Of a stretch of DNA of 64,000 bases, positions 27,801 to 55,309 are shown one piece after another. The stretch spans positions 124,001 to 188,000 of the forward strand of contig NW_026861419.1 in the NCBI RefSeq assembly GCF_026571515.1, in the 5' to 3' direction. Numbering within the stretch: the stretch's first letter is position 1; every line of letters begins with the position of its first letter. The notes under the pieces were generated by a model that saw nothing but the letters and a program-made list of their open reading frames with translations, was not told where the DNA came from and made no database searches. Source of the DNA: Ruditapes philippinarum (taxonomy: Eukaryota). The translations under genes were made by a program, and so were the position numbers.

Positions 27801-30800
27801 CCCTTTACTTTCTGGGCATATTAATTAATCAATAAATTGTATTCTATGGTTTCCTTGTCGGTTTATATAATTTCCTTTTAAAATAATCATCCCCTATGTG
27901 CTTTGCCTTGTTCCCTGTCCTGTTTTACTTCGGGGTTGCTTGGCTCCTTGCCCGTGGTCCTGTGTCGCTTAATTGTGAGGGGGTTGCGTTCATGGAACGC
28001 CGCCCTTCTTTGTTGATCTTTTTTTCATATTTAATGTGAACGTGGCTGTTGTCTAGTGAAAAACTGTTTGTAAGACTTACATCACAATAAACATATTTTT
28101 CTGCATTTGTGTGCGTGATTTTTGTTGTTGTTTTTTTTTTTGTTGTTGTTGTTTGTTTTTTACAGGGTGACCTTCTGTCATTGTTGATCAAATTAATTTA
28201 ATATAGCATAAAAGGGTGCTGCTAAATGGTGCAATCCTTTTCTGTATGATGAAGACTGAAGATCTTTGTGTAAATTGATATTATATCACAGAAACGAGTC
28301 TTGGGTGACCGTCTACACATATTGTTCAAAAACTTAAATAAGTGTAATTGTGGTGCAGTAGTGGTAACTTTTCTTTTGATACATTTATTATGATTTCTTT
28401 AAACAAATTGTCAAAAAATGATTTGAATCAAAATTTTCATCTTGGCTATCTGATTACATGTTAGACTATTATAACGTTAGACTATTATATTTATAGACAG
28501 ATTAATTTTGTCAATCGTTAATGTGTTTTTTTTTTCATTATTTGACAGCAAAATGGCACCTTGAGACAAGCAGCTAAATTCAATGCTGAAAATGATGCGA
28601 TTATTCTAAGTGAAGCTATGAAAGGGTTAAGTGAGTACTCTTTATGTTTATACAAATATAAAAAAAAATATTTCCGTTAAGAAATCCTTTTACGATCACT
28701 ACTTTGAGTGAAAATAAAATAAGATATATTTTCGATGACGCCTTAACACGGACTGTTTAGTCCTAAGTGTGTAGTGAGCAACTGATTCAACCCTTATGAC
28801 CAGTGCAGACTAATATAAACCAGCAGACCCTTGCTATCTGTTCATGGTATACATTGTTATTTAGTCAGAAATTTTTCCTACAAAATCATAAATGTATTTG
28901 TCAAGATTGGAAGATCCGAAAGAGAGCATATAGTCGCCGCTTTGTCCGGATGTCCGTCCCATTTTCTTGTGCGGAACATAACTTTGTAGGTAGATAGATC
29001 TCATTAAATAAAAGTACAGTGCAAAAGAACTGTTCCTCTGCCTAGCCTAATATTGGAGTATTTGCAATTTGTTCATTTTTACATTTTGAACTTTGTCAGG
29101 GACAAAACTCTGAAACTAAAATAGACATCAACAAGAAACTAAGTAGGAACATAGATCTCATTGAGTTGATTTACTGTGTAAAAGAACCACTACTCTCCGT
29201 AGTCATATTTTGGAGTTATTGCTCTTTGCTCATTTTTATACTTTCAACTTTGTCCGGGACATAACTCTGAAACTATAACAGATATCAACAAAAAACTTAG
29301 TTGGTAGATAGATCTTATGTAGATGTTCAGTGCAAAAGAATTGTTACTCTGTCTTGCCTATTTTTGAAATTATTAGCCTTTTTTCATGTTTGCACTTTGA
29401 ACTATGTCCATGACATTTCTTTGAAACTATCAGTGATATCAATTAGAAACTTCGCAGGTGGATAGCTCTTATCAAGTAAATATGCAGTGCAAAATAATCG
29501 TAAATCTGCCTTGCCTAATATGGGAGTTCTTGCCCTTTGTTCATTAACACTGTTAACTTTGTTCAGAACATAACTCTGAAACTACAAGAGATTCAACAGG
29601 AAGTAGTTTCTCTGTATGTTAATGTAGCAAAACTTATGAATAATTTAGCTTTAATGAAGTTAATTATGTAAAATAGTAAACTGTAATAAACTTTGTAATA
29701 GAAAGAGCATAAATCAGATTGCCGACTGTTTTGGTGTAAACCTTTCTCTTTTAAGAATATGACACTTCTATCGTTATCCCTTTCCCTGTCGTCACATTAA
29801 GTAAACCCAAGAGAAAAGTGAGACAACCATTCAGCATACTATGAGTGCGGCTAACTAATACGCGCACTCCTATTAAAGCACAATACATGCATGTATAAAG
29901 GATTTAACACATTTTTATCAGAGAGGTCCCAAAACTATAATACAATTTACCCAAAATATATTGAATGTAGAAACAAAGGCATGTATATGAGAGTAACTGT
30001 CAGCTGTAGGTCTTTTATAAAAAGAACTTTTTTTCGGGCTTCTATTTTTCTCTATTTTGACTTAACTCATGATAAAAAAATAAAAATATGTTGTAATTTT
30101 AGCAAAATTCAATAGTCAATTGAAAAGCAAACAGTGCAAATGATGATTAGACTGCACAGAAGTGTGAGCTTATATTGTTCTGCACTGGTTGCCTAGCATA
30201 CCCTTAGTTTAATGTGTCTGTAACAGTAGGCATTAGAATAAGGCTAGGCATTTAAATAGATTAGTAATAGGTCAAAATGGTTAAGTGGTTAAATGTGGTG
30301 TAGTAGAAATAAAACGCACAACTGACTTTTCCATTTTAATTCTACATAAGTGTACAACTTGTTTTTCATCTGGTCAAATCCGAACTACCCCAGACTGGGC
30401 TTTTAGACCACCTTATTTCGCCGCATAAAAATATCAACATATTGTGTTTAATAAGTTATATGTAGAAACTATTTAATTATATCCGACATTTGACCAGTAC
30501 GTTTAAAGGCATATTGTAATATAATATATATTTATCATGTCATGTTTAAAGTTCACATTATGAAATACATACATGTCATCCCAAAACTGTGTTTGTCATT
30601 CTATAAAATATGTATGACTAATTAACCTTAGAGTGCAGTATGCAACATAAAGTTGCTGACTTTTAACCACTTTTCCTTACCACTATTGGTTGGAATCCCG
30701 CCAGTGACTGGATTCTGCCACTTGAAAAACCTTTCCAGCTACCATACAGAATGTTGGTGGTTCTACTCAGGTGCACATTCGTGCCAAAAATAATACACAA

Positions 30801-33800
30801 ATAGGCACTTGAGGTCCTCCTCCACCGGTAAAGCTGGAAAATTGCCACATGGGTTATACACATGTTGGTGTGATATAAAAAAATAACACTATCAGCAATT
30901 ATTTTGTTATATTAAAATCGCATGCTTAACAAGTATTATGATGATCATAATTTGCACAGAAAGAGACAGATAATCTTACCGGTCTTAGTTTACACAGAAT
31001 CTATTTTCGTTTTAGCGTTTAATTTGACACTCGCTCAAATCTGTTCCTGGAACCAACAAGGACTGAGCAATGAGTGTACAGTATCTTGTTAAAGGACACA
31101 ACAGCTTGTGCATTTGAACTCAAATGGGTAGAAATCTTTTGATTACATGTCTGACAAATTAACCACTTGACCATGCTGTCACTCATACTTATTGGGTCTC
31201 GTAAATGTTTTCTGTTCCTAAATTCAAAATAAACTCTGGCTATTTATAGTATAGGTATACGGTATGAGTTATGTAATAACATTATCAGCAACATGTTTAA
31301 ATTTGTATCTTAAATATGGTAACCACAAGCTATTGTTACGATTTACTTTTGTAAAGCAGCTAGTCTTTGCTTACATGTAAATAGTAAAGGGACAGATGGT
31401 CATATGGGCCATGCAACCTAAAGCCTTACTCAGTCAAGACTTGCTTCCTCATATAACAACAGTACTGGTTAGTTTTCGGAATTGGACCTGTTATGTTTTC
31501 AATTTCACAGACAAACTAAAATAGATATGTTTATTTAAAGTTTATAGTGTATAGTACACATTTAAATTGTGTCATATCTATTTTGCTCCAACAATGTAAG
31601 AAATTGTTATTTTTATATATACCACCGAAATACACTAAATAAGGCTTTATGGCTAAGTCATAATATTTATTTAATAGTCTGGAGCGTGATTTTTGCTTTA
31701 CCAATTAAATTAAAGCTAGGACCTGTAAAAGTGTTTAATGTTTACATATTTACTAATGTTATTACCAGTTAATCATCCTGGAATAGAGACTCATTATTTT
31801 AAAATGTCCACTTAGAACATGGCATATCTTAGATTCAGTAACGTCATCCTAGTGTGTTAAAAATTTTAACATATGATAAATACTTGTATTTGCATTCAAA
31901 CTGATTGGCATATTTTCAGACATCGATGAGAAGGCCATCATAGACATATTAGCTAATAGAACTAACAATCAGAGACAGGATATTGAACAAAAATTTAAAA
32001 CTTGTTTTGGAAAGGTAAAAAAATGAGATTAATCTTTTACGCAGTAATTATATAAAAAGAAGACTTAAAAAATATATAACTTAATGAACATGGTAATAAT
32101 GTCTGTAATTTGAATAGTATTTTTTCTTTGAAAATGTAGTTAAGAATCGTCAATTGATTTTTTTTCACTTCAGGATATATTGCCTGCTTTTAACATTGTC
32201 TTTTGACATCTTATCATTCATATGCAGGCTTCATATATAAAAGGAACATCCTGTGAACGTTGCCTTTGCCTTGTTGATCTTTATTCTTGTTATTTCATAA
32301 CATCTAACCCCCTTTTAAAATTCCGTTCTGTTTAGTTCCGCCCATTTTTAGCTCATCTGTCAGAAAGGGACATGGTGAGCTTTGTGATTGCCTTTTGTCC
32401 GACGTTTGTCCGTCTGTCCGTTCTTTACACCCGATAATCAACCTTTTACCCCACAAGTACAAGTTTGTGTGCAATGAACATGCAAAGATATTCACCCCAT
32501 CATGTCACTTGAGGTCGTACGTCCGTCCTTCGTCCGTCCATAAACCTTTTTTTAATGACATCTTCTCATAAATTGCTAAGCTAGTTTCATCCTAACTTCA
32601 CAGGAATGTTCCTTTGGTGGTCACCTTTGAAAACAATAATTCCTTGCTGCACTCTGGTTGCCATGGCAGCCCAAAGAAAAAATTCAAAATATCTCTTTTA
32701 AGGTCAGGGTCTTCCATGTGTGTTTAAATAAAAGCCCTTCGGTCAAATTTGGCCGGTCCGGGTCATTGTGATTTTTCTTACATGTTTATAATTAAGACTT
32801 AAAACTTATTCTTTTAAAAAATCAATGAGCTATCCCTTAGGTATAAAGCATAAAACATCTTCTAGTGGGTGTCTAACAAGTTGTTCAAATAAAAGACCTG
32901 GGTCAAAGTTGACCCCGCCCCAGGAGGTCATAGACTTTTTTTCTATGTATATTGTAAAAACAAAAAAAAAACTTCTTTTAAAAATCCCAAATAGCTAGAG
33001 CTTAGATATTTTACATGAAACATTTTATAGTGAGTGTCTACCAAGAAGCCACGGATTAAAATTGGCCCCGCCCCAGGGGGTCATTGATTTTCCTTATCTG
33101 TATATCGTAAAAACAAAAATCTTTAAAAAAAAAAAAAAAAAAACAAAGAGCTAAGATATTTTGCATGAATAATTTTCTAGTGAGTGTTTACCAAATTTGT
33201 TCAAATAAAAGCCCTGGGGTCAAAATTGGCCCCGTCTCAGGGGTTAATTGATTTACCTTATATGTACATATCTGTCGGAACTGTTGTTTTCCCTAAGCAA
33301 TAGTAACCAGTATTGTTTTTACACATGCAATATTTCTTATACAAATATGAACTTTGTGATATCAGTTTAAGATTTATATTTTTATCTGCTTTTGTTTTTT
33401 TATTGTTTACAATATTACTTGTTTCTTGTCATGGAGACTTTATATTCAGGTAAGCGATTTTAGGCCCATCATGGCCCTCTTGTTCCGTTGAGCTATTACT
33501 TGGGGACCTTACACCATTTTTCATGGAATTGCACCTAGTGTTACATTGTAGGTTCCATGATAACCGCCGTATGAACACATTTGCATATGTTTTGAAATTC
33601 AATATTTTACCCTTTTCATGTTTAACTGATGAATTATGCCGGTGCTAATAGGCATGAACGGTAAATTGCATTTTCCATTACCGTCAATGAACAGGCTCAA
33701 TAAAATAGAGCCGGCAACATTTTCAATTTTGCGTTTTGGACTGTCTTTAAGGATTCTTTATTTCTCTATTTTATGTGAGATAATGTATTTAAGGTATTTT

Positions 33801-36800
33801 AACTACCATATTTTATCAAACTTGATCTGTATGTTTTAAATAGTTTTGTTGACAAGACAAAAATGTTTTAGAATATTCTTTTTAATGCCTTATTCAAAAT
33901 AAAGAAATAAGAAAATATACATACTTATCATCTAATAATTAATTTCCAAGTGAAGCTTAAAGTAAATATTACTGGCTATTCAACTATCAAATTTTATCAC
34001 AGGCATTGACCGAAGAATTAAAGTGTAAGTTAGGTGGAAAGTTTAAGGATGTTATGATTGATTTAATGTGGACACCGGAAGAGTTCGATTCCTACGAGCT
34101 GAAGAACGCAATGACGGTAAATGACATTTAATTAGATTCCATTTGATGCTGAAAGAGGCCTCTTTGGTGCTGGAATTAAAATAATTGACTAACAGTTACT
34201 TGAACTTATACTCAATGTTACAGGTTTGAATATTTTATTAAAGGTATGGAAGCTGTTCACTCTACTGTAAGAGATCAGTGGTTCTACTTTCAACCCTACC
34301 TTGCCAGAAATAATGTTCAGGAATGCATGATATTGGCACCTAACTTCGAGTGCCCTCAAATGCTTTAGCTGTAATCTCACGGTAGCTCTGAAAGTTATTT
34401 TATTAAATTGAGTGTAAAATAAATACAACATACTGCAGCTCTTTCAAAAAATCAACTAGAATCATTATCATAAATGTTTAAAAGTGTAAAAGCGATAAAT
34501 GTTGGTTTGCACTCGAATAACTATCTTAAAATAGGGAACAAATTATCTAAAAACATAAATTGTCTGAACTATTTGCACACAGGTGTTGATCCAGGACTAA
34601 GTTTTACCAAAGGATTAACAAGTTCACAACAAACTAGTTCACACGAGCTAAAAATATGCATATTCCACAGCTTGTTTAACATTAATTTTGTTTTCAAAAA
34701 GGGGTCCTTAATCCAAACGTACTATAAATAAAGTGACTTTAATAAATGTAGTTAATTACTAAACCTTTATATAATGTCCTGTTTTATACATACAAAACAG
34801 AATAGCCGAAACCAAGTTGTACCCAATTAAAAAAAAACCCTACTCTGGACAAATCAATAGACACCTGGACATAAGTTAAGCACATCCCGGAAATTAAAAA
34901 ATGGTTGTGATTGGGTTTATAAGTATAGTGTTGGAGCGTTTACAAAATATTTACTGGTCGATATTTTTGGTAAATGTTAAAATGACATTATGTAGACAAA
35001 TTTTTAATAACGTATGTAACCGCCACGTGCCCGGATATTAGTCAATTTTGACAATACCGCAACTGAAATTTATTTGGGTCATGATACGAACCACCTGTTG
35101 TCAACCTGCAACAACTGGAACAAGCTCTGCACCAAGAATGGCCAAATTTACCTCAAAATCGCATTAAACGCTTTACTGGTAGTATGAGGAGAAGGGTTGA
35201 GGCTATCATCCGGGCACATGGCGGTTACACACGTTATTAAAAATTTGGCTACATAATGGCATTAACTTAGATTACGTAATCGGCAACATTAACAAAAATA
35301 TCCATCAGTAAATGTTTATAAACGCTCTAACACCGTACTTATAAACACTTACATTTTTGGTAAAATACAACACAATTGCTTATGCTTCAGAAATATGGTT
35401 AAGAATAAACTTAACTCGTAAATTTACTGGTTTATGATAACCAAATTGGTAATGCTACATATCAAATTACTTTTTTCTAGCTCAATTAAGTCGTCATCTC
35501 ATGACTGTGCTTTCAATCACAACCAATTTTAAATTTCCGAGGTGTATATATAGATATCTAAATGATATACGGGGTATATGCATGCACAAATATGTAGATA
35601 TTTAAAAGATATATTTTCAGGGTATATGTACAGATAGAGATGCTATGATTGAGATATTGTGTTCTAGAAATAATGCACAAATACAGAAAATCAATGAAGC
35701 ATACCTAAGAAGTAAGTGCTAACGTACCTTTGTAATCGTGTTTATCTATTGCTAAATTTGCATGCTGGAATTCTTGTCCATTTTTCTATTTTGAACTAAC
35801 CATTATTACTTTAAGGGATTGTAGGATTAAAACAATAAAATTAATGGTAACACATATATGTATGTAGTCCAAATTGGCTCTCAAATGTGAATACTATCTC
35901 TTGGTGAAAGGCAACATTGTTATTGTTTTACTACACTATGGAAGTTGATAAAAATGTTCCAATTAAAAGAGTTGCGTTCAATGAACGCAGCCCTTCGTTG
36001 ATGCTCTTGTTTTCTATATTTTCTGAAAAATTATTAGTAATTTTGAACATTAGAGTAAGAAAAACAGCAAAAAACACCAAAATGTTCACTATCAACAATC
36101 ATTTGTGACATAGTTACAGAATATAGATTTCATTTAATCCTAAGCATGCTGGCTGCTATACAATCTTCCCACGCAACGAGTCATAATAATTAATGTTCTT
36201 GTCCAGATGAAAGACGGAAGCGTTCATTTAAAACTTTGAGCAGGGTAAGTGGTATTAAACATATGCCACTATACTAGACATTTTTGTAGTTTTTATTTTG
36301 ATAGATGTTATAATAATTTTATGTTATTATTTCAGTGTATAAATGGAGGTTAGAACAAGACATTATTAATGAAACATCAGGTCATTTCAAGGAACTCATG
36401 GTCTCTTTGGCTAACGTAAGTGAAGGTGTGTGCGTGCGTGCGTGCGTGCGCGTGCGTGCGCGCGCGTGCGTGTGATTAAACATGTTTTATAAAATATACC
36501 TGAAGTTTTACATAAGCATAAGTTATTAAGACTCACTAAGTGTAATTGCTTTATATGTTACATTGATTAACTTGTCTGCCACTAGTGTAGGTTTGACTCC
36601 CACTGAAATGAGACCGAAGGGCTGCTTGATGTCCATCTCCACCCACCAATAAAACTGGAAATTTGTGGTTTGAAATTTACAGTGTCTGTGTAAACTAACC
36701 CCATCCCCCTCCTCTCCCAAATAGAAAAAAAGCATCTCACCCTCCTCTCCCAGCTGTAATCCCACCCACCCCCAGCTTTAACCCCATCTCTCCCTCCTTT

Positions 36801-39800
36801 CCCAACTGTAACCCCATCTGCCTCTCCTTTCCAGCTCCAAATAAAAAGAAAACATGAATGTATTGATTTGCTAGTCAGTGTTTAAACACCTAAATTATTT
36901 TAAATCTTTGTCATCTTTCATTTGTACAATATAAAAGGAACACATAACTATAAAAGGTAAAATATATATGTACATACAAATTTGCATCATATATATATCT
37001 GTATTATGTATTATTTTATTTATTTAGGGGGAAAGAATGGAGAATCAGGCTGTAGACATGAACAAAGCTAATTCTGATGCTCAAGTATGTATATATACAT
37101 ATATAGACTAAAAATCTGAGGTTAATATAATCATCAGGGCAAATAAACATAAAACAATATAAAATTCATTCCATCCATTGTATATCAATACATACAATAC
37201 ATTTTTTACAGTACAATCCATGTCTTCCTTAATATGGAATGTTTTACCTTTAATTTTAAAAGAATTTCCCTCTATTATATGATCACATAGACCACATCGG
37301 AATCGCTGCATTCAGAAACTTTAGGAATATTTTTGTTCTCTTCAAATTAGGATCTAATTAGTAAGTGTTTTAAATTAGGGAGCTGACGTTTGCATTTAAT
37401 TATTTGTGTGTTGTTTATAATTTTTCAGCTCACCTGAGCTAGCTCAGGGTGAGCCATTAGGATTGTTGAATGTCCGTTGTCCGTCCACATTTGCTCGTTA
37501 ATACTCTAGCGGTCACATTTTTGCCTCAATCATCATCAAACTTTGTCAGGATTCTTGTCTAGGTAATTGCTTGGATGAGTTCGAACATGAGTCATCTCGG
37601 ATGAAAAACTAGTTCACACGAGCTAAAAGTATAAAAATCTTGTTAACACTCTAGTTGCCACTGTTTTGATCTTAATATCCTGCAAATTGGTTTGAATTTT
37701 TGTTTTGATAGTTTCTAGATCAAGAATATGGGTCACCTTGTGTCAAAAACTAGGTCACACCGCACAAATATGGAAAAACATTGTTAACACTCTAGTGGTC
37801 ACATTTTTTGCCTCAATTATCTTTAAACTTTGTCAGAATGCTTGTCTAGGTAATTGCTCGTATATGTTCGTGCATTAGTCATTTCGGATTAAAAACTAGG
37901 TCACATGAGTAAAAATAGAAAAATCTTGTAAACACTCTAGTGGCTACTGTTTTGATCCAAATATCCTGGAAATTGGTCTGAAAGTTTGTTTTGATGCTTT
38001 CTAGATTGAGTTCGAATATGGGTCACATAGGGTCAAAACTAGGTCTCACTGCTCAAATATGGAAAAACCTTGTGAACACTCTGGTGGTCACATTTTTGAC
38101 ACAACTGTCTTGAAACTTGGTCAGGATGCTTGTCTAGGTAATTGCTCGAAAGAATCCGATGGGCCAGGTGAGCGAAATAAAATTTCCATATTATTTTTAA
38201 GAATTTCGAATACCTCTCTATTTTCAGGGTTTTTTTAAAAATATATGATAAAATAGATTCATTGTTACGTTCATTTGTGTTTAATAAAACTTTTAGGCAC
38301 TTGCATTGTCTTTATAACCTGAACATGATATTTTCTTCTTATTAGAATATTTGCCAGCTCCTATGATTTTAATTTGAGAACAGTGTTATTTGAAACTATT
38401 GAACATATTCTTCTTGCTAAGCAAAATGGAATATTTGTTTTGGGGTGTTTAGGATGTCGTGATTTGTAATCTAAATATTGTCTAGAATCAGTGTCCTTTG
38501 AAGTAAATGTCTGTAGAGCTTAATTATCAAAATATCTATGAAAGGGAGTTTTGTGTTACTAATTTGCATTTTAAATTTAATGTTTTTTATGAAAGAATTC
38601 AATGTCATTTCAAACAGATATAAATCTTGGGTAGGTTTAAGCCAAAATATGAAGCAATCATCATCCAGGTATCTTTTCCATTGGCCTCTTATCTAGTCAG
38701 CAAAACTATCGTCTTAAATATTTTTTTTCTATCAGTATTTCTTCAAGATAACCAATTACTAGAGAAGCATATGTTGGTGCATCTTTTGTACCCATGATTG
38801 TACCTTAAGCTTGTTTGTAGAATAAACAATTAAATGAAAATATGTTGTTTTCTAAAACAATTTTCAAGGCCTCAATTATAAAATGCTTATTAAAACGATC
38901 TATTAAAAGTTCTCGGTGTTTATCTAAACCAAAAAGAAGTAGCATTTATACCTAAGTCATGAAGAATGTTTGTATAAAGACTAACAACATCAAATGAAAC
39001 CGTTTATGCATGTTCATCATCATCATATCATCATCATCATCATCATCAAAATCATCATCAACAACAATTTCAATATATTAAATCTAAATCTTTAAACAGA
39101 GAAATAATGAATAAAAGCTGTGAATGTAAATTAGATTATCTTGAAAAGCAAGCAGTGCGATATATAGGCCAATTGTAGAATTTTTGTATTTAGACTAGCA
39201 ATACAATGTATTTACAGTAAGGGTATATAAAGATGGTGAGTTTTGACATTTATATGTTTTAAAGAAAGGTAAATCCTGTCAGATAAGACGGTCTCCATAA
39301 TTTTGTTTTGTGAGTTTTACGTGCTAAAAATGTATTGATTCAACTTTGAACTAAGCCATGATGTGAATGAAATAGCATTAAAATAGTTATATTCAACAGT
39401 TCCTTGTACAAGCTGAGATCAGCAAAATGGGTACGGAAAAGTCACGAATGATTGAAATCATGGCGTTGCAAAGTTACGAGCAGCTGAGAGCTTTATTTAA
39501 TGAATACACAAGCATCTCTGGCCGAAGCATTGAAATGTCAGAAATCCTTGACGTTGAAATGCTGCCTGTTAGTGAGTATTTTTATTTGTTATTTTATAAG
39601 ATTATACAGAATCTGTCATTACTCGTTATATGAATATGTCATGAAACAGATTGCGCAACTCGATTTTTTATGTGAATGTCTCAGAATAAATAGGCAAAGT
39701 ATCTTTACATGGATTCCAAAAAATATATGAGCATTATATTGAATGATGAAATATTTTACTTTCAATCAGTGCAGATTATTTTGTTTGAAAATACTCAGTT

Positions 39801-42800
39801 TTCCTGTGAAGAAAATGTGTTTTCATAAACTGTGCGCATGCCATAACAGTAAGAAAGATGATTACTTTTATTTTTGAAAAGCAGTTATGATGATCAAAAA
39901 TATTTATTTAACTGGCTATATGGCTTATTGGTCCAGTATAAATTATTGTAGTTTTATCTATCTTTAGCCAATATGTGAGAGTTTTATTACAAACAATCGT
40001 TTATACCCAGCCATATAACACAATTGAGTTATTTGGGAGATATCAATTACTTTATGATGTTTTTGCCAAGTATATAAAAATACAAATTTCTGCATTATTC
40101 AATGCAAGTAAACGTTACAAGTGTGCAGTTCAATAAAAGATATTTTAGGCATATATTAATAGTTCTATAGCTGTTCATTAAATTAAGCAACTACTGAAAA
40201 AAGTTGGTTATAAAACAAGCCATTATTCCCCTTTTGTATTATGTAAGAATTTTGAACATGTGGTATCTTGATTTCTTTTTAACAGTTGAATGTGTCCGAC
40301 ACAGGCCAGGCTACTTTGCAAAAAAAATATACAAATCTATGAAGGTTTGTATAACAATATTGTTTTGCCTCTTTTCACAGCTGAAATACAATTGCTTGTT
40401 AATTTCTAAAGACGGGGGTAACATGTTTCTAATCCAGGTACATATATTTTATCTGCTGGCAGCAACTGAATTACTCTTGTTACCAGTGCAAATTACGATC
40501 AGATGTCACATCTGTGCCATTTGATTATGATCTGCAGAGTTCAATAGGTAAAATTTTTCAGGTAAATTAGTTTTTAAGCAATTTGCCTTATGTTTTTGGT
40601 TTTTAATACACCCGAAAACACTCTTTTAGTAATGTTAAATTAAGGGTTTTCGGGTTTCTTTCATTTAGAAGCTGGACCTATGCTGCTTTAGCAGTTATTT
40701 TGAAATTTCCCTAAGATGATGAGGGGTGTCCATGGTCGAGTGATTAAGGTCGTTGACTTTAAGCCATTTGCCCCTCACCGCTGTGGGTTCGACTCCGGAC
40801 AGACAAGAACTTTGATTTTTTCATGTCAAAAACCTATCAAGCTAGCTAACAAAATGTCATTGGTTCTGCTATTGGTGCCTGTGCGTAGCTGAAATAATGC
40901 ACGAAAGGGTGCCTGAGCTCTTCCTCCTACAGTAAAGCTAGCAAATTACCATATGACCTACACTGTGTTGTTGAGACGTACGAGTAAAACGCAACCAAAA
41001 AACAATAAATATGATGATTATTTGCCCAAATTGAATGAAAGACATACCCAATTAAAATAGTTAGCGTCCAAATGGTTGAAAATACAGATAAATGAACAAT
41101 ATTTTTAACAGCAGCATAAATGCACAGATTACCGATATAAATCAATATCAGTTCTCTGAATGTTGACTATTACAGGATGCTTCTACAGATCATAGAACAT
41201 TAATTCGAATCATGGTAACAAGGGCAGAGGTTGATATGGAACAGATCAAACAAGTTTTCCAGAAGATGTATGGTCAAAGTTTGGAACAATTTGTTAGGGT
41301 TAGTATAGACTGTATTTATATCTTATCTTCTAAAAGCTATCCTGTATGTGAACTGGTCTGCAGACTGTATTCTATGTTTTAGCTTGAATAAATTAAACGC
41401 AAAACAATACGCTCATTGTTGTTAAATTTTGTTATCCATTTCAGGAAGGATTTACTGACAAATTTAATGACTGTTATTATTTATAATGATGCCTTTAAAA
41501 TTGGGTATTATAAAATATTTTCTGTTAAACAGTCTAATTAATAAATTATTTACATATTGAATATATTATACGAATGTGAAAATAATATATAGTATATGTC
41601 TGTAGAGTGAAATATTATTCTTTCAGATGCTTTGTTTCAAAACAAATATATCATATACATTTGTATATTGGCATGTAGAATTGTACTCCAAACAAGTTTA
41701 AAATATATTTACTACAACCTATTTCAAGATATTTTCAGTATTGGTATTTGTGTTGTGTTTTCTATAGAATACTATGTTAGTATAATGTAGGAAATTATTT
41801 TGAACTTTATTTTTCAAAATATTATAAAGGTTTTTAATTGCGAGGAAATAATTAAATACATACAATTATTTATTCCCTTTAATAAGAATTGACTGAAGAT
41901 CGTTCAGATAATTTATTCTGTTAGTTTTATGAGGTCTTGTACAGGTAATTTATTGCCAGGAAGGTAGGATTTCAATCAGACAGTTAAGCTAGACTTGTTC
42001 CTGTTCAATTATAACAGGTCTATGATTTAACATATTTGAATTTCCTGCAAATGTTAAAAACTAGTTGCTATGACTAAATGAGCACAAAGTGCTTAGGTGG
42101 TGGCTTTTTTGATAGCCCAGTGTTCATCAAATGTTGTATGTTAGTATTCACAATGTTTTTAAACAACGTCTTCTTTTAAGCCTAAAATGGTCCTTCAATA
42201 GGATTATTTTATCCATTTTACATTTGACTTACGTAAGCGATATAGACCTTCTTTGTTCTTATGTTAAATAGTACTTTTAAACCAGGTTTGCCTGTTTTGG
42301 TATTGATCAGTTGTATGCTTCTTGTTTTATTAGATAAGTCATATAATTTAGAGATATTACTCCCATCATTAATTACTTTTCATTCTTATGATGTACTGAA
42401 ATGATTTATTTGAAGTTCATACTAATTTAAATATTGCTTTCACTGTATGAAGAACCATATATTTCTTAATTGCGACAAGTAGTTGTCTGGATATTAAATT
42501 TTTGTGCCCCCACTATAGGAGGGAGTATATTTACCCTTTTCCGTCCGTCCATTCATTCTCATGTTGTGATGCACGTAGCACAAAAAAAAATTCAACCTAG
42601 AGTCATGAAACTTGAAAGAAAAGTTGGGCAGTATGTGTGCTGCTGTGCACCAGGTGTTTTGCTTGTGGATTTATTCTGTTTTGTCAGAGTTATTGCCCTT
42701 GACTAAGTAAAAATTTGTTATTTTTTAATTTGTGTCGCATATAACTCAAAAAGTCTACGGTCATGAAAATTTACAGGAATATTGATCAGCATGTGAGGTT

Positions 42801-45800
42801 GTGCACCTTGGGGTGTGCTTGTAGATTTATTCAGAGTTATTGTCCTTGACTTAGTTAAAATTTGCAATTTTCAACTTCGGTCGAGCGTAGCTAAAATAGT
42901 ATTTACCATAGAGTCATGATACTTTACAGGAATGTTGATCAGCATGTGTAATTCTGTATAAGGGTTTCGCTTGTAGACTTTTTCAGTATTACTAGAGTTA
43001 TTGCCCTTTGAATTAGTAAACATTTGCAATATTCAACTTGTGTCGTGTGTAGCTCGAAAAGTATTTGACCTAAAATCATTAAACTTTATAGTAATGTGTG
43101 TTGGCATGTGTAGTTGTGCGCCTTATGGTTTGCTTGTAGATGTATTTAGTATTTGTAGAGTGTTTGCCCTTGACATAGTATACGATTTACAGTTTTCAAC
43201 TTGTGTCACGTGTAGCCCAAACAATATTTGACCTAGAGCCATTATGGCAGTGTGAATAGTCATTCACATGTATGTAATATATTTGTATCAAATTTATCAA
43301 TAAGTGATCACTTCCCTGTCTGTTTCATTAGAACAGTTAAATCACGAGTTAAACGTGGTTTCCATAAGACAATGAAATATAGATCATTCAAGACATTTAT
43401 ATAATGAACAATCTTTTCAGACTGATTTAGCTCGATCTTCTCTAGAATCTGTGGAGTATATTGTTGATCCAAATTTAGCTTTACAAACCTTTTTTTCAAT
43501 AGTAAAAGATATTATTACCAAACATGCTCCAATAAAAGAAAAGAGAATTAAATTTGATGCACAGCCTAAATGGTTCACTGATGAAATTAAAGCAATGATA
43601 TTTTTAAGAGATAAATATCACAAAAATGGAGATTTCGATAATTATAAATTATTACGAAATAAAATAAACTCAGAGATTAAGAAAAGCAAAAAGAATTTCT
43701 TCAATAATGCAATAAATGAAAGAAAAAATCCAAAATACATTTGGCAAAATTTAATGATTTAACTAATTTAGGTAAAAAGGAAAATGTACTTATTCCCGAA
43801 CGGCTCACTTTTGGCGATACTACATTTACTGATCATGCTAATATTATAAATGAATTGAACAAACATTTTGTAAACATTTCTAATATTGTCGAAAAAGTAC
43901 AGTTATCTAACGACGAATTTAAAATATTGAAGGATAAGTTAGATAATAAATTGAAATGGAAAGAATTCAAAATTTAAAGCATTTCTGCATTTGAAGTTGA
44001 AAACATTATTAATAAACTAGATGCAAATAAGGCCACTGGACTAGATGAACTAGGTCCAAAAATAATAAATCGTGTGGTGACTTTGTGACCCCAATGATTG
44101 CTAGCATAATTAATAACAGTATAAGACAAGGAATATTTCCCGATGAATTAAAAAATGCCCGAGTTATTCCAATTTTCAAATCTGGACTGAAAGATGATCC
44201 GAGCAACTATCGACCTATTTTTATCTTGCCTACAATATCTAAGATTTTTGAACGTCACATAGCTAATCAGTTACAGCATTTTTTCCAAAAAACAAATATT
44301 TTACATAATAAACAATCAGGATTTCGAAAGAATCATTCATGCAATACGGCCCTAATTCATTTGATAGACTCCTGGCTAAAAGATGTTGATAGTGGCAAAT
44401 ATATAGGTACAGTATTTTTAGACCTGCAAAATGCGTTTGATTTAGTTGACCATGAAATACTTTTATATAAACTCAAACTTTATCACTTTTCTGTCACATC
44501 ATTAAAACTGTTTCATTCGTATCTGTCTAATCGTATGCAAATAATTTAAATTGGAGACTTAAAATCTGACGTACAGTATGTTACCTCTGGCGTTCCACAA
44601 GGCTCAATATTAGGTCCTTTACTGTTTCTTCTTTATATAAATGATCTCCCAAATATTTGCGAGGATGTTAACATAGATTTATATGCTGATGATTCCACGT
44701 TGCATAAATCTGGAGATGACATATCAGTTATAGAAGAAAAACTACAATATAGCCTTAATATGATTACTAAGTGGTGTAAAATAAATAATATGCTTTTACA
44801 CCCTAAAAAATCTAAAAGTATGCTGGTAGGTAGTAGACAAAAGCTAAAGATTGCAAAAGCAATAAATTTGAAAATTAACGACTCAACTCTTGACAATGTA
44901 GAATCACAAAAACTGCTTGGTATTTATGTTGAAAATACACTCAATTGGCACTGTCAGGTAAATGATGTGTGTAAAAAATTGAACTCTAAAGTTAATTTAT
45001 TTAGGCGTATAAAGTACTTTTTAAATAAGGAATCTCGCATGCTTTTTTATAATGCATACCTTCTTCCTATTTTTGATTATTGTTGTAATATATGGGGAAA
45101 AGAAAACAAAAAATATATATGCCAAATATACAAAATACAAACACGAATTTGCAAAATTATTCTAGACCTTCCAATGAGAAAACAATCAGAAAATTTATAC
45201 AAAAGATTAAAAATATTGCCTTTCAAGAAAAGATGTATTTTTCACAGCGGTGTCCAAGTATATAAAGCATTGAATAATATGTCCCCTCAATATATCCGAG
45301 ACTTACTTACCATATCTAATAATCAAAAGTATAATCTAAGATCGATATCTCACGGAAATTTAATTTCGTCTTACAAACCACGTACTAATTTTTTTAATGA
45401 CACATTCCAATTTAATACCATGGTTATTTGGAATTCCATACCACTGACTATAAGAAGAAAAACAAAATTGTCAATATTTAAGAAATGTTTCAAGAAATAC
45501 TTATTTAATCAAATTTAGCACGGTCCGTATGTCTTATATATACAGGATACGCTCTTTATATTCATACATGTGTTTTTTTATTATTATGTTTTCTAATAAT
45601 GGGTGTCTGTCTTAGTTTCAAGTTTTTTGACTCTGTTAATTTTGTAAGTTAATTTTACTTTTTAAATTGCAGATTAAAATGATGCACTGATGAAAGTATT
45701 ATGTTTAATGATAAATAAAATGAATTGTATGAATGTTCAGTATATGTGTTAATATATGTTAAAATTGTGATAACCATTTAATCATTTCTTTTTACATGTT

Positions 45801-47529
45801 ATATCGATGGCTCAGCGCAATACTGGTCTAACTGCTATTTTTGAAAATGTTCAGGAGAGACAAAAAACTGATTTTATTCAAAAATAATTATATTAGAAAA
45901 CTTTATTTTGCTATGTTAACATTAATTATATAAGGAAATAATGCCATTTATATATTTTTTATTTAAATGTTACAAATTGTGTATTTGAGAGTTAGACCTT
46001 TATTGCGCTGAAATTCTGAGCACAATACAAGACTTACTTGAGTTAGACTCAAATTCCCTCTTGCAATTTGGTAAAAGTGGTACAAATATTTGAGTTAGAC
46101 GTACCTTACATATTTTGATATAAATGAAAAACAAAATTGTTTTATTAATTTAAACATTGTTTAAAATATTCTGCAAGGCTGTAGAAGAACTTTACAAAGA
46201 CTAAATCCTTTAATATTTTTCTATTAATATATCATGCGGGCTGACTTTAGATGAAAGTACACTTCTTTCTTCTTTTTCAATTTGTTTGAGTAAGATTTTT
46301 TGCAGATTATCTGTGCAATAAATTTGAATTCTAAACAAAATGCAAACAGTTTTGATTCATATATTGTTATGAACAGTCATCATGAACAATGATGACTGAT
46401 GATCCAGGTATATATCATGATGTCATCAAAGTTTGAAAACAGGGAATGTACATTTTGTATAACCCACATTTGTACAAAGAAGACATATTTTATTTTCTCA
46501 ATGCACACTATTACCACCATTGGTGCTTAAATGGTGTGATTCCGATATTACTGTTATGCACTAAATCTTAATGAATTTAATGTATGCGGTTGTCTTTTCT
46601 GATGGTATAATCATTTATAAATATCAAATATTTTCAAAAATGGCAGTGAAACAATGTACAGTCTTAAGCAGAACACATTATATAAATATGAAAAAAGTGT
46701 AAAATTAAGAATTAGGAAATCTAAGGTCAAACTAAAAAAAAACAATTTTTAGAGGGGATCAGAGGTTATGAATCCCTAGTGTAACGCGTGTTATTTTCCA
46801 TTTTAAATGTGTGCATGAGAAACATACACTGTCTTTTACTAAATTGTACAAAAATGATAGTTTCACCTGCACTTTATGTTATCAAATAATACAGTATGAG
46901 TATGATGTAATGACTTCAAAGGCAAAATAAATGTGACACTAAGTTATAATTAATTTTTTTCAAGATTTTTCATTTACAGTTACTTGTACATGATATGCAA
47001 TTGGCTAATATTTCGCGATTAATACAAAGCACTGATGGAGGCAAATAATTTCTATTGTTTCATGAATTCTCACATTCCTTATAACACATTTCAATGGGAT
47101 ATGCATATTATTCTGTACCTGGAAATGAAACATTTAAGGTCTAACTCAAGCATTTTTGTGGAAAAGTGATATATTTGACATCGCAATAAGAGACCAACTC
47201 AAGTTAGACCTATATTGCACTGACGAAATTGAACTACCTGAGATAGTCTTTTATTTTAAATGTAAATAAAAAAGGCAAAATAGGCATAAATTACCCTAAA
47301 ATTTTCACAGAATGTGTATTTGACCTTACATTATCAAAATATGTAAAAAAGTGATTTTTGGTAAAAATGTCACTTAGACCAGTATTGCGCTGAGCCATCG
47401 ATATTATCTTTGATTGATATGTGTTCTTTTGTGTGTGTTTTTATTTTTTATTTTTATTTTAGAAGGCTGCATTGTAAATAAGATGTTGCAATCTGTATAT
47501 GTCTTAATGTGTTACCTTCGGTAAATAAA

Positions 47530-47566
<37 letters not shown>

Positions 47567-47960
47567 GATTGACAAGACTTGGAGTATGGGGGCACCCGTG
47601 TCCTATGGACACATTTCAAGTATATATATTGAAATAAGAAAAAATAATTTGAAAAACACGTTGGCAAAATATTGCTTTGGTCAGAGTTATACCCTTTGAA
47701 CTTAATTGAATTGTTGAAGTTGGATTTAAGGGGTTGAGAAGAAGAGCAAGAGATAAAGGTGATGGCCTAAGAGCACATTCCTAGTAGCTTGTTGTCTATG
47801 CCATGTTTCCCACATACATTCCTTGTATATTTTTCCATCTTTTGTATGTATCTTTTGTGATTTTTGTAATTGGCACAAAGTGTTTTTCTGTAAATTTCAG
47901 GACGCTGTTTCTAGCGAATACAGTCGTGTAATACTTGGAATGATTGGCGCAGGCTACTAG
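3238..47960 (+). CDS. Predicted 15-exon gene, 714 aa: CXorf38/DUF4559-like HEPN domain + coiled coil + divergent annexin core. join(3238..3822,5892..6047,6905..7087,10249..10431,10620..10724,28549..28630,31920..32014,34003..34116,35621..35711,36336..36415,37028..37084,39400..39571,40286..40344,41176..41298,47901..47960)
   Basis: All introns are GT..AG and phase-compatible; 2145 nt with no internal stop; in-frame TAA at 3226-3228 upstream of ATG 3238; TAG at 47958-47960. Exons 1-5 have no stop codon and exons 6-15 have no start upstream of the annexin core. The exon 5 to exon 6 splice is inferred. Confidence 0.7.
3832..5678 (+). mobile_element. Second copy of the same tandem-core element, about 9 units, in intron 1
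   Basis: Same termini and unit as 494..1785; the 3' 400 bp are nearly identical. Confidence 0.85.
5892..6047 (+). CDS. Coding exon 2: HEPN motif exon (VLDSRNQLMHSPNNKMTDSDTCNILQWTKKLLDCLDIAEKTYYNNAVQELQD)
   Basis: TTTCAG acceptor, GTAAGT donor, phase 0/0, 156 nt; R-N-x3-H at 5904-5921 resembles CXorf38 RNEIMHS. Confidence 0.88.
6360..6805 (-). repeat. Diverged, partial reverse copy of the hairpin-bearing element at 10800-11550
   Basis: 6725-6790 is the reverse complement of 10803-10866; 6600-6655 matches 11001-11050; 6363-6386 matches 11250-11270. Confidence 0.65.
6905..7087 (+). CDS. Coding exon 3: helical linker (LSENDFVLRYQ...LQDMLESIAALR)
   Basis: Polypyrimidine tract + TAAG acceptor, GTATGT donor, open 183 nt, phase 0/0. 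Confidence 0.8.
7925..10143 (+). mobile_element. 5'-truncated, decayed L1/Tx1-clade LINE (RT + C-terminal zinc finger)
   Basis: Frameshifted motifs GFIKNRFIG, LDFRYAFDTI, RGLRQGCGIS, QLADDTT, GGLNMID, CVLCNCTDSTEHFYIHC; A-rich tail near 10128-10143. Confidence 0.88.
10249..10431 (+). CDS. Coding exon 4: charged helical segment (STTNTRLEMKLSKYK...KREVKKAI)
   Basis: TTTAG acceptor, GTATGT donor, open 183 nt, phase 0/0; in frame with ORF 10267..10479. Confidence 0.8.
10620..10724 (+). CDS. Coding exon 5: coiled coil (KQMQKLEPEEMADEIKKLRKENESLKCENEQYNTA)
   Basis: TAG acceptor after pyrimidine tract, GCG|GTAAGT donor, phase 0/0; heptad pattern I-x2-L-x6-L. Confidence 0.82.
10800..11550 (+). mobile_element. 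Non-autonomous element with a 150-bp imperfect hairpin (possibly Crypton-type)
   Basis: Arms at about 10802-10866 and 10888-10952 (ATATCGGT..ACCGGTTT..TTTTGATGCG / CGCATCAAAA..AAACCGGT..ACCGATAT). Family assignment is tentative. Confidence 0.5.
11799..12216 (-). mobile_element. Truncated tandem-core (HINE-type) element fragment
   Basis: AACAAGAG terminus; GACCTTGAACTTTGACC...AAGTTTGAA core unit. Confidence 0.5.
14100..14755 (-). pseudogene. TatD-family DNase/metallo-hydrolase pseudogene inside the Gypsy element
   Basis: Ordered TatD-like motifs across frameshifts: DSHFH, IAVGLHP, QHIQHYYLTG (for IHLHCFTG), YFGFT, LLD*DAPY (for LLETDAPY). Confidence 0.8.
16062..16207 (-). pseudogene. PHD finger at the C-terminus of the Gypsy integrase
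   Basis: EVYCICRKPQNG / KFMIMCKYCNEWLHGSCV / LEIDRYKCLACK gives C4-H-C3 across two frameshifts. Confidence 0.85.
18777..19125 (+). mobile_element. SINE 3' portion (same family as 26400-27110) inserted into the Gypsy RT
   Basis: GTGACACTTG..TTGTGGGCCTATTAA..CCTTTCCTTGTTGATCTTG shared with the other copies; interrupts RT. Confidence 0.8.
20890..23415 (-). mobile_element. BEL/Pao LTR retrotransposon 5' fragment (short LTR, PBS, gag, protease)
   Basis: DUF1759-type gag LPKLEMTSFSG..WVEFWDSFESAV..KFNYLKGKLTGEA; knuckles CRFCNKDHWSDEC and CVYC..HHRSLC; protease LLDSGS; FWNFES motif at the truncation; PBS-like TGGTGTCGTG at 23291-23300; TGTTGC..GCTAC segment 23415 to 23301. Confidence 0.88.
23445..23705 (-). 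mobile_element. SINE tail copy
   Basis: Reverse complement of the 18777-19125 family. Confidence 0.75.
25740..25970 (-). mobile_element. SINE partial copy
   Basis: ATTAATAGGCCCACAA..GACGAGAAAACA..CAAAGACATAC shared with 26820-26990. Confidence 0.7.
26400..27110 (-). mobile_element. MetaSINE-like element, interrupted at about 26440-26640
   Basis: Minus strand reads GTGAGATTTGGTGCATCATTAACTGGTTTAATCACCCC..GCCGCTTCAAGACAGCGC, resembling the Meta domain as I recall it, followed by the shared pyrimidine-rich tail. Confidence 0.65.
27760..28030 (+). mobile_element. SINE tail copy
   Basis: Same family; GGGGGTTGCGTTC..GAACGCCGCC..TTGTTGATCTT. Confidence 0.7.
28549..28630 (+). CDS. Coding exon 6: start of annexin core (QNGTLRQAAKFNAENDAIILSEAMKGL)
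   Basis: T-rich tract + CAG acceptor (phase 0), GTGAGT donor (phase 1); annexin GT...F.AE.DA..L..AMKG pattern. Confidence 0.92.
28915..29600 (+). mobile_element. Tandem-core element, about 155-bp units
   Basis: GCATATAGT..GTCCGTCC head; ATAACTCTGAAACTA unit at about 29105, 29262, 29415, 29571. Confidence 0.75.
30630..30885 (+). mobile_element. Decayed V-SINE (RUDI-like)
   Basis: GGTGGTTCTACTCAGGTGC..CCTCCACC..AAAGCTGGAAA matches the copy at 40723. Confidence 0.75.
31030..31185 (-). mobile_element. CORE-type SINE fragment
   Basis: GTTCCTGGAACCAAC..TCTTGTTAAAGGACACAAC..ACCACTTGACCA resembles a reversed tRNA head plus CORE domain. Confidence 0.5.
31920..32014 (+). CDS. Coding exon 7: annexin repeat 1 (NIDEKAIIDILANRTNNQRQDIEQKFKTCFGK)
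   Basis: 95 nt, a typical annexin exon size; TTTCAG/GTAAAA. Confidence 0.95.
32345..33484 (+). mobile_element. Complete pearl/HINE-type element, about 160-bp units
   Basis: TTTTAGCTCA..GGTGAGCT head, GTCC microsatellite, AAATTGGCCCCGCCCCAGG unit x4, CAGGTAAGCGA..GGCCCTCTTGTT end. Confidence 0.85.
34003..34116 (+). CDS. Coding exon 8: annexin repeat 1/2 (ALTEELKCKLGGKFKDVMIDLMWTPEEFDSYELKNAMT)
   Basis: 114 nt, typical annexin exon; CAG/GTAAAT. Confidence 0.95.
34881..35546 (+). mobile_element. Internally deleted Tc1/mariner element
   Basis: TIRs 34881-34913 / 35514-35544 followed by TA; transposase C-terminus LEQALHQEWPNLPQNRIKRFTGSMRRRVEAIIRAHGGYTRY* at about 35090-35240. Confidence 0.88.
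35621..35711 (+). CDS. Coding exon 9: annexin repeat 2 (GICTDRDAMIEILCSRNNAQIQKINEAYLR)
   Basis: 91 nt; TTTCAG/GTAAGT; IEILCSR motif. Confidence 0.95.
36336..36415 (+). CDS. Coding exon 10: annexin repeat 2 (MYKWRLEQDIINETSGHFKELMVSLAN)
   Basis: 80 nt; TTTCAG/GTAAGT; ETSGHF motif. Confidence 0.95.
36427..36474. repeat. (GTGC)n/(GC)n microsatellite
   Basis: Direct reading, just after the exon 10 donor. Confidence 0.9.
37028..37084 (+). CDS. Coding exon 11: annexin repeat 2-3 linker (GERMENQAVDMNKANSDAQ)
   Basis: 57 nt; TTTAG/GTATGT. Confidence 0.93.
37150..39005 (-). mobile_element. Decayed Penelope-like retroelement (RT + GIY-YIG), split by a HINE
   Basis: FDVVSLYTNI, GTIMGTKDAPTYA, KRYLDD, and CGLC...MDCTVKNVLYVLIYNGWNEFYI. 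Confidence 0.85.
37422..38175 (+). mobile_element. HINE-type element with alternating A/B units of about 144 bp
   Basis: AGCTCACCTG head, CAGGTGAGCGA end; AACACTCTAG-like marker at about 37499, 37645, 37785, 37931, 38076. Confidence 0.85.
39400..39571 (+). CDS. Coding exon 12: annexin repeat 3 (FLVQAEISKMGTEKSRMIEIMALQSYEQLRALFNEYTSISGRSIEMSEILDVEMLPV)
   Basis: 172 nt; CAG/GTGAGT; SYEQLRA.F.EY motif. Confidence 0.92.
40286..40344 (+). CDS. Coding exon 13: annexin repeat 3-4 (IECVRHRPGYFAKKIYKSMK)
   Basis: 59 nt; CAG/GTTTGT; PGYFA..IY.SMK motif. Confidence 0.95.
40723..41010 (+). mobile_element. Full-length tRNA-derived V-SINE (RUDI-like)
   Basis: A box TGGTCGAGTGATTAAG, B box GGTTCGACTCC, TGAAATAATGCACG core, A-rich tail. 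Confidence 0.85.
41176..41298 (+). CDS. Coding exon 14: annexin repeat 4 (DASTDHRTLIRIMVTRAEVDMEQIKQVFQKMYGQSLEQFVR)
   Basis: 123 nt; CAG/GTTAGT; TLIRIMVTRAEVD motif. Confidence 0.95.
43240..47565 (+). mobile_element. 5'-truncated L2/CR1-group LINE with frameshifted ORF2 and (ATT)n tail
   Basis: PKWFT, KATGLD, NYRPI, QSGFR, FLDLQNAFDLVDH, GVPQGSILGP, YADD, WNSIP; AATAAAG(TTA)n at 47524-47566. Confidence 0.92.
45805..47400. mobile_element. Non-autonomous TIR DNA transposon (Sola1-like), 1596 bp
   Basis: Perfect 27-bp TIR CGATGGCTCAGCGCAATACTGGTCTAA; ATAT on both flanks (45801-45804, 47401-47404); subterminal GAGTTAGAC repeats. Superfamily inferred from the 4-bp AWWT target. Confidence 0.85.
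47901..47960 (+). CDS. Coding exon 15: annexin C-terminus (DAVSSEYSRVILGMIGAGY*)
   Basis: TTTCAG acceptor phase 0; aligns to DTSGDY..LL.L; TAG stop; AATAAA at 48162-48167 is a candidate polyA signal. Confidence 0.88.
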   Translation, partial: DAVSSEYSRVILGMIGAGY

Positions 47961-48689
47961 AACCACTACTTGATGTACTTGACTCAGTTTTGTTTTAGTT
48001 AGTTTTAGTATATATATATAATCATCCTGATCTCTTTCTTTATTCCCCCCCCCCTACTTATTTCCTTTTTTTATCATGTCATTACATTGATTTCAGTTGA
48101 TTAAGTGCATGCTTGATCAGTCACCCACAGCTTAATCAGAAACCATATCAATATATATTGAAATAAAATGATAAAAATGTCATATCTTAAACTCTTACTA
48201 GTTTGAAAATATTAAACTGATTATCTTTTTAATCAGATAGAATTTTTGAATATTAATGTCTCTCTTACATTTGACTAAACACATTCAGGACCATTACCAA
48301 TTGTTATGACATTGGCATATTAATGCGCACGGACGTGAACTTTAGAGATTTTTGACAGATTTTTGTTTTCATTTGGTTAAAACATATTTTATTCGATACA
48401 TTTACATTATGATGATCAATATATACACAATACATTTGGAATTGGACAGAAAGCTATATTGTCTTGATATTAATAACGTCCACGAATATATTGACAAGAT
48501 GTATTTTCATCGAGTGGTATGGAAATAAATATTTCCTGAGTTGCGGTATTATTTTTAAAATTATTCTTATTCTATTTTTGACATTACAATTTAAAAGACT
48601 TGCCCTAAAAGTGTGTATATTGGCTGAATTTAGAAGAAAGAAGTCCGGCAAGACACAAGTGAAAATGTAATGAAGAATAGATTTTTACA

Positions 48690-50255: not shown

Positions 50256-50719
50256 CTGTCCAAATTTACATAATCATCATTATCATTTTCCATTTCAAAA
50301 TTTTATTTCTGTACATATTTTTGTAACATGATATTTGAATATAATTTGTTTGTCTTTAAATAATAAACAATTATTTTAACATTTTTGCATCATTTAAATA
50401 TCAATATAACATCATTTTCATCTGAAATCTTTCGACTTTATCTAAGTTTTACACAGTTTATTAAATTTTCCATGTAGGTATAACTCTATAAGTATTTGCC
50501 TTAACTTTGGATATAAAAATGTTACCTATTAATTTATAATTTTATTTAGACGTGTTAAGCAAAGTAAAAAGAAAAAAGACCCCCCCCCTCCCCCTAGAAA
50601 TTTATTTAAAAAAGTAAAATTATTTTCTCATACTCTATATCGTCAGCTTTTTCGTCAGCAGTTTACAGCCGCCCAATCAGATACAAAAAAGGATGTGAGC
50701 ATTTGAACCGGAAGCTGTT

Positions 50720-51035
50720 AGTCGACAATGCGACAACGCGATGGCAACAGTACGATAGCGCGATGACGACAGTACGAAAATGCGATGACGACAATGCGAT
50801 TATGCGATGACGACAGTGCGATAATGTTATGGCGAAATAACGATACCGCGATGGCGACAACGCGATAGTTTTATCGCACTACCGTATTGTCCCCATCGCA
50901 TTATCGCTCTGTCATCATCGCGTTATCGCACTGTCGCCAACGAATTATCGCACTGTTGTTATCGCATTGTCGCACTATCGCTTTGTCGTCATCGCACTGT
51001 CGTATTGTCGTCTTCGTACTATCTCATTGTCGCCC
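50720..51035. repeat. Inverted pair of CpG-rich minisatellite arms (GCGATGACGACAAT-like)
   Basis: Forward units 50723-50868, reverse units 50872-51035. Confidence 0.8.
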
Positions 51036-55300: not shown

Positions 55301-55309
55301 AGCAAAAGC

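Follow-up and report, generated by a model that had tools for sequence, protein, structure and literature searches.

The window, by which is meant the whole 64,000-nucleotide stretch that was analysed, carries an annexin gene whose ten core exons (Table 1) splice to 933 bases, corresponding to 310 codons and a stop, with no internal stop codons. The exons proposed by the initial annotation are real, as judged from AG at 10/10 acceptors, GT at 9/9 donors, and the open 933-base frame; neither the frame nor the splice sites are broken in the manner of a pseudogene. An alternative exon-1 donor at 28625 was rejected because it would not continue in phase into exon 2, and a tblastn search within the 64-kb window identified no second copy of any exon. 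Pfam PF00191 matched four annexin-repeat stretches (E 3e-70). The corresponding NCBI protein (P0001, annexin-B12-like, Ruditapes philippinarum) has 334 residues and consists of the same core preceded by 24 N-terminal residues. The motifs IEILCSR, TRAEVD, and PGYFA are present as previously quoted, and the loop and cap sequences had also been read correctly.

Table 1. Coordinates of the annexin copy and associated features in the window
Feature	Position	Strand	Observation
First coding exon of NCBI model	23811..23882	+	Homology to parent not found; no support in the RNA runs examined
Duplicated segment	about 26501..51537	+	Aligns collinearly with the parent locus (G000 C3094 and C11224); homology stops on both sides
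Remnant of parent's last tail exon, 3' end (54 bases)	26501..26554	+	Intact donor; frame open for 33 codons
Core exon 1	28549..28630	+	Helix IA and beginning of repeat-1 AB loop; joined to exon 2 in run X1
Core exon 2	31920..32014	+	Repeat-1 loop: second Gly to Asn (codon split across splice joint), Thr to Ile
Core exon 3	34003..34116	+	Repeat-1 cap Glu to Lys (34027-34029); another Glu to Lys (34045-34047)
Core exon 4	35621..35711	+	Repeat-2 loop: Gly to Cys (35627-35629), Glu to Arg (35636-35638)
Core exon 5	36336..36415	+	Repeat-2 cap Asp to Glu (36371-36373), acid retained
Core exon 6	37028..37084	+	Linker II-III; residue changes 1/19
Core exon 7	39400..39571	+	Repeat-3 loop rewritten and cap-removing deletion; 172-base exon also in X1 contig
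Core exon 8	40286..40344	+	Splice sites; exons 7 and 9 lie 59 letters apart in X1 contig
Core exon 9	41176..41298	+	Repeat-4 loop: Gly to Asp, Gly to Ser, Asp to His
Broken non-LTR retroelement in intron 9	43376..45518	+	Reverse transcriptase frames; unmatched in parent intron
Core exon 10 with stop	47901..47960	+	Repeat-4 cap Asp to Ala (47904-47906); outside RNA contig and read coverage

The surroundings of the gene are rich in repeats. Directly upstream, on the minus strand at 20334-22858, lie fragmented LTR-retrotransposon-like frames with a DUF1759 domain, which we take to be Pao/BEL. Further retroelement-like fragments occur at 7959-9501, 53984-54328, and 55235-56474, with reverse transcriptase confirmed only for 7959-8273. 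Introns contain arrays with units of roughly 145-165 bases (28980-29602, 32516-33270, 37422-38175, and 42833-43235), and these units have many similar copies elsewhere and are very abundant in the RNA runs. A 282-codon open frame at 3229-4077 (plus strand) gave no Pfam match above the cut-off; its look-alikes by language model (score 0.92-0.93), mollusc DUF4559 / DZIP3-like HEPN proteins, offer a lead only. The intron-9 retroelement likely inserted after the duplication described below, given that the parent intron has no match to it.

Annexin-repeat matches in the clam genome number 59, on 13 contigs. The protein closest to the window copy is P0002 (71% identical), named "annexin A4-like" by NCBI and encoded by an annexin A7/A11-like gene; next come its orthologues from Mactra, Mercenaria, Mya, and Dreissena at 62-65%. 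An 18-protein tree placed the copy as sister to P0002 with support of 100/99, on a branch of 0.51 compared with about 0 for P0002. The P0002-type gene, hereafter the parent, is found on two contigs of assembly G000, C3094 (with tail exons) and C11224; these are probably haplotypes, since comparison of nine core exons shows 8 differences and the introns diverge by roughly 10%. All core exon boundaries are common to copy and parent, and only exon 7 differs in length (172 vs 190 bases). The introns remain alignable at 0.27 substitutions per site over 4569 columns, both parent-type copies are equally 0.27 from the window copy, and the coding dS of 0.258 (95% 0.18-0.35) is in line with the intron value. 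On the evidence of shared exon boundaries, alignable introns, and the sister position in the tree, the copy is a young segmental duplicate of the clam annexin A7/A11-like gene, and by descent and exon structure it belongs to the mollusc annexin A7/A11-like group. Divergence has been one-sided: with six bivalve orthologues used for polarisation, the copy accounts for 78 of the 85 residue changes and the parent for 5, with 2 unclear. Orthologues of the copy were sought in other species by several non-exhaustive searches. An exon-7 query matched P0001 alone among 5 candidates, a full-length protein search found no relative closer than the parent, none of the best 150 of 4449 representatives clustered at 50% exceeded 58%, and a short-fragment search yielded no orthologue among 41 candidates.

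The parent on C3094 encodes a long Gly/Pro/Tyr N-terminal tail. Five orthologue tails matched the parent locus, but the 49 kb preceding exon 1 of the copy gave no match to any of them. The earlier statement that all ten exons are preserved is accurate for the core but not for the tail, where the parent exons have no counterpart save a 54-base remnant. Homology to the parent is detected no further 5' than the first base of this remnant, 26501, and no in-frame ATG lies within it. In RNA run X1 (see below), the exon upstream of exon 1 seems to have G as its last base, in agreement with the remnant exon and not with the NCBI exon. The 140 letters of this contig upstream of exon 1 could not be placed on 23600-28547 at 97%, and no X1 cover of the NCBI exon was found at the same threshold. 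N-terminal tails of this kind carry partner-binding sites. Annexin A7 is described as binding sorcin, and annexin A11 as binding ALG-2 (PMC8037771).

Type II sites are described as binding calcium through backbone carbonyls of the AB loop together with a cap carboxylate about 40 residues on; they are required for membrane attachment, for which weak sites alone are reported to be insufficient (PMC3588008). All four are intact in the parent. Alignment to the parent confirmed the central claim of the initial annotation, that all four type II sites of the copy are degenerate with frame and splice sites intact. Read as first Gly, second Gly, Thr, and cap, the copy has G/N/I/K in repeat 1, G/C/T/E in repeat 2, E/G/T/deleted in repeat 3, and D/S/T/A in repeat 4, so that 0/4 sites satisfy the strict motif (G-x-G-T plus acid cap) and 1/4 keeps an acid cap. 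The mildest lesion is in repeat 2, with one loop Gly-to-Cys replacement. Altered cap residues had been reported correctly for repeats 1 and 4; the repeat-2 cap does retain its acid, though as a D-to-E change relative to the parent. For repeat 3, the changed loop had been recognized but the fate of the cap overlooked: an 18-base in-frame deletion in exon 7, at about 39534, takes out the cap Glu along with most of helix IIID. The repeat-3 loop itself aligns best with a -1 and then a +1 base change near 39415-39430 under all three gap settings and is likely a compensated frameshift. Altogether the copy shows three apparent coding indels with a net shift of zero, all in repeat-3 loops. Five acid-to-basic swaps lie at or beside calcium ligands, and the net charge of the loops moves from -9 to -4, which is still acidic. 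The possibility of a positively charged membrane face that works without calcium found no support, as the loops remain at net -4 and the whole core at +1 to -5.

A survey of 101 near homologues found four sites kept in 89, three in 11, one in 1, and zero in none; the site loss of the copy is therefore more than chance. Among 99 scored cluster representatives (109 candidates, of which 10 were dropped for not spanning all sites), there was a single zero-site case, the annexin B9-like protein of Aphidius gifuensis. Elsewhere in the clam assembly, a group of tandem divergent annexins (G000 C5492, L051-L056) includes at least one member whose loop motifs have changed in repeats 1, 2, and 4 and may represent further site loss in this genome.

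The predicted structure of the copy has a pLDDT of 91 and superimposes on annexin XII (1dm5) with a TM score of 0.89 and an rmsd of 1.5, although the alignment on which the model leans consists of canonical homologues. In the model, helix IIID is shortened to the three residues left after the deletion. The model suggests that the copy protein is folded. Calcium bridging is predicted to be lost or much weakened because three caps are gone and loop glycines are replaced in all four repeats, with repeat 2 as the sole doubt.

Neutral evolution was simulated by evolving the parent sequence with the intron mutation spectrum along a branch of 0.135, half of 0.27. The expectation was 6.8 stops (P of none, 0.0008) and 8.1 frameshifting indels, scaled from 80 non-triplet intron gaps (P of none, 0.0003), and the probability of all 19 splice dinucleotides remaining intact was 0.004; at a branch of 0.10 the respective values were 0.004, 0.002, and 0.016. 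Non-loop residues conserved in at least 90% of homologues were changed at 6/61 positions vs 16.4 expected (P 0.001), and at 4/54 vs 14.7 expected with exon 7 omitted (P 0.0002). The absence of stops, frameshifts, and splice loss, together with fewer conserved-core changes than expected, indicates purifying selection on the frame and core along the branch of the copy. Against this, pairwise dN/dS between copy and parent was 0.61 (0.42-0.91), and the value for the copy branch is 1.16, 0.86, or 0.58 if the copy carries half, two-thirds, or all of dS. Change was neither even nor at a neutral rate along the gene, the conserved core being spared and the loops altered. The earlier view that the copy is under continued selection and is not a pseudogene gained support, because an open frame, intact splicing, and a spared core are each improbable under neutrality and because spliced RNA is present.

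Seven runs were compared. Two of these, X1 and X2, are assembled runs chosen because part of the stretch occurs in them, and their RNA label was a guess (none of the listed runs with the stretch is recorded as RNA, which was given no weight as evidence); for X1, a splice joint within a contig identifies it as RNA. A 356-letter X1 contig (depth 4.8) joins 28630 to 31920 at GT..AG, and a 446-letter contig (depth 8.1) contains exons 7 and 9 separated by a 59-letter interval equal to the length of exon 8, with 1 and 0 differences from the genome in exons 7 and 9, respectively (exon 9 compared over 41174-41286). Parent contigs in X1 have depths of 217-478, and in X2 a portion of exon 7 is present with depth 2.85 compared with 74 for the parent, although contig depth is a poor gauge of expression level. 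Raw data were sampled from the other five RNA runs, X5, X9, X10, X18, and X19, with 6-25% of each run read, and none of these gave a read assignable to the copy. At 41240, all reads in X9 and X18 were parent-type (10/10 and 134/134), with 0 copy reads, and X5, X10, and X19 had zero depth on exons 1-2 of the copy. Expression of the copy is low or restricted. At position 28578 the X1 contig has T, which would restore the parent's Asn in place of Lys at residue 34; this is possibly an allele, with an error in a lone low-depth contig also conceivable.

The explanation that we consider probable, if not by a wide measure, is that of a young, tail-less, spliced duplicate with a selected core and unconstrained loops, serving as a calcium-independent binding module in few cells; it fits the retention of the core, the loss of the tail, and the restricted RNA. 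After duplication, the four calcium loops would have been freed from constraint and the tail dropped, with the helical core and reading frame likely kept by selection. An annexin disc is the predicted fold of the protein, which would lack calcium docking on acidic membranes and act as a calcium-independent binding module in few tissues or stages. Such a role would imply a new partner. No replacement binding surface is visible, given that the loops are net acidic and that a K/H/R-G-D motif is absent from the copy core, as it is from the parent core. This explanation and the alternatives considered below partly overlap.

The alternative that survives best, unlikely as we judge it, is that of a dying duplicate: a gene long selected but now redundant and barely expressed is drifting toward a pseudogene, the loops having decayed first as the parent covers the calcium-dependent function. 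The low or undetected expression would suit this history, as would the helix IIID deletion and loss of the tail, a dN/dS close to 1 for the whole branch under an even split of dS, and the lack of any closer relative in the searches of other species. Exon 7 of the copy also occurs once in an assembly in which that of the parent is present twice. However, most of the changes arose while the frame, splice sites, and core were being maintained, and a second sample, X1, shows these exons likewise open, none of the pieces compared differing at more than 1 position. The selection tests describe the past branch, and a recent release from selection is compatible with them.

Changes are concentrated at the calcium sites, as had been claimed. 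Type II residues are changed at 10/16 positions vs 76/300 elsewhere (P 0.003), and the AB and DE loops at 26/52 vs 54/258 (P 4e-5; six deleted codons left out), or 17/39 vs 36/213 without exon 7 (P 5e-4); loop windows were fixed by motif position before counting, but after the alignment had been viewed. Synonymous change is not elevated in the loops (0.20 vs 0.26 overall). A more far-reaching alternative, which we hold doubtful, is that the convex face was remodelled under positive selection, either to bind a new ligand or to turn the protein into a calcium-insensitive antagonist or decoy acting on its parent. Loop dN is 0.33 on essentially one branch, compared with a dS of 0.26 over both branches, and loop change exceeds the neutral expectation with P 0.001 at the even split (branch 0.135). 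The five acid-to-basic swaps and the confinement of every apparent indel to the repeat-3 loops would agree with remodelling, as would exons 9-10, where 8 amino-acid-changing differences fall in 28 loop sites vs 4.5 in 112 other sites, with 2.5 silent differences in 40 sites. The excess depends on the branch length, however, with P 0.03 at 0.18 and 0.47 at 0.27, and with exon 7 omitted P becomes 0.034, 0.21, and 0.77 at 0.135, 0.18, and 0.27. Loop pN on one branch is not above whole-gene pS over both (P 0.49), and silent changes were left unpolarised, as outgroup coding DNA was absent from the comparison. Glu-to-Lys is a single transition. In neutral simulations repeats 1, 2, and 4 were jointly damaged in 26% of runs, and complete site loss therefore needs no targeting once constraint is lifted. 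Of the "targeted" loss proposed initially, the clustering in loops stands, but the case for positive selection is suggestive only and release from constraint suffices. The scaffold or decoy role put forward initially is a conjecture. If positive selection did dismantle the four loops within one clam lineage, through point changes, a compensated frameshift, and an in-frame deletion, as the tail was dropped, a reading to be entertained with low confidence, the locus would show an A9-like, calcium-blind annexin at the moment of its origin. The protein would be a calcium-insensitive antagonist or would bind a new ligand, and its intact parent lies in the same genome, so that each step of the switch could be rebuilt and assayed. 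Silent divergence is unequal among exons (P 0.023), with its minimum in exons 9-10, and partial gene conversion is possible. Around exon 10 (47682-47996), the non-coding difference from the parent is 0.12 and there is no silent change, yet five residue changes occur in the first codons despite this closeness, which possibly reflects gene conversion or constraint.

A low-affinity calcium sensor, in which repeat 2 and residual weak sites still bind and the protein has been retuned and not blinded, seems improbable. Repeat 2 retains its first Gly, Thr, Asp, and acid cap at the proper spacing of 39, binding through backbone carbonyls as described (PMC3588008) might survive a Cys, and repeat 1 retains Asp-Glu. 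Against this, the repeat-2 Gly that is now Cys is near-universal in the homologues of alignment A2 (conservation 1.0), its neighbouring Glu has become Arg, three caps are lost, and the reported requirement for type II sites (PMC3588008) leaves little to weak ones. That the copy is a product of misassembly, or a parental allele that has diverged, might be suspected in a fragmented assembly with two parent copies roughly 10% apart in introns but is very improbable, since two parent-type copies are already present and both 0.27 from the window copy, homology ends on both sides, and the altered loops and the deletion recur in independent RNA contigs beside parent contigs in the same run.

The preferred reading, a calcium-independent duplicate with a selected core, can be set against annexins already described. 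The parent (P0002; C3094 and C11224) resembles the copy in its ten core exons, alignable introns, and 71% identity and differs in its four intact sites, the Gly/Pro/Tyr tail on C3094, and contigs about 25-60x deeper in X1 and X2. Mammalian annexin A9 is reported to have lost all four type II sites, to be of low abundance, and to bind membranes independently of calcium (PMC3588008, PMC8037771). The copy shares the loss of all four sites, with repeat 2 its weakest case. In the sources consulted, A9 is described as close to annexin A2 and as having K/H/RGD motifs, whereas the copy nests with the clam A7/A11-like gene and has none; A9 has also been assayed for binding. Its site loss is independent of A9, with resemblance by convergence only, as judged from its position as sister to the clam parent at 100/99 in a tree from which A9 was absent. 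The Aphidius gifuensis protein (P0258) likewise has zero of four sites by the same scoring and a Lys at the repeat-1 cap; unlike the copy, it is from an insect (a wasp), keeps a Pro-rich tail, is 37% identical, and is a database entry only.

Partial loss is more familiar. About a third of annexin domains are said to lack a type II site (PMC3588008, PMC8037771), motif loss is reported as frequent in trematode and nematode (helminth) annexin clades (PMC3795353), and small motif changes are described as altering or abolishing annexin binding (PMC10882027). Annexin A10 and the helminth group B annexins are old lineages with partial type II loss, usually in one to three repeats, whereas in the copy all four repeats were altered within about 0.14 neutral changes per site. 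Literature searches, judged by titles and abstract openings, revealed no paper that deals with this gene or with the loss of annexin sites in clams. Annexins lacking all four sites are already known, and the copy is a new independent case. It alone defines no new system, and its low expression carries a real chance of decay. The role of calcium-blind annexins such as A9 and the contributions of drift and selection to site loss are open questions, and according to one review an A9 knockout does not exist. A9 is too old to retrace; the copy, in contrast, is young, its nearly unchanged parent resides in the same genome, and the changes between them can be counted, which makes it a manageable case in which to study what purpose an annexin core serves after calcium binding is lost.
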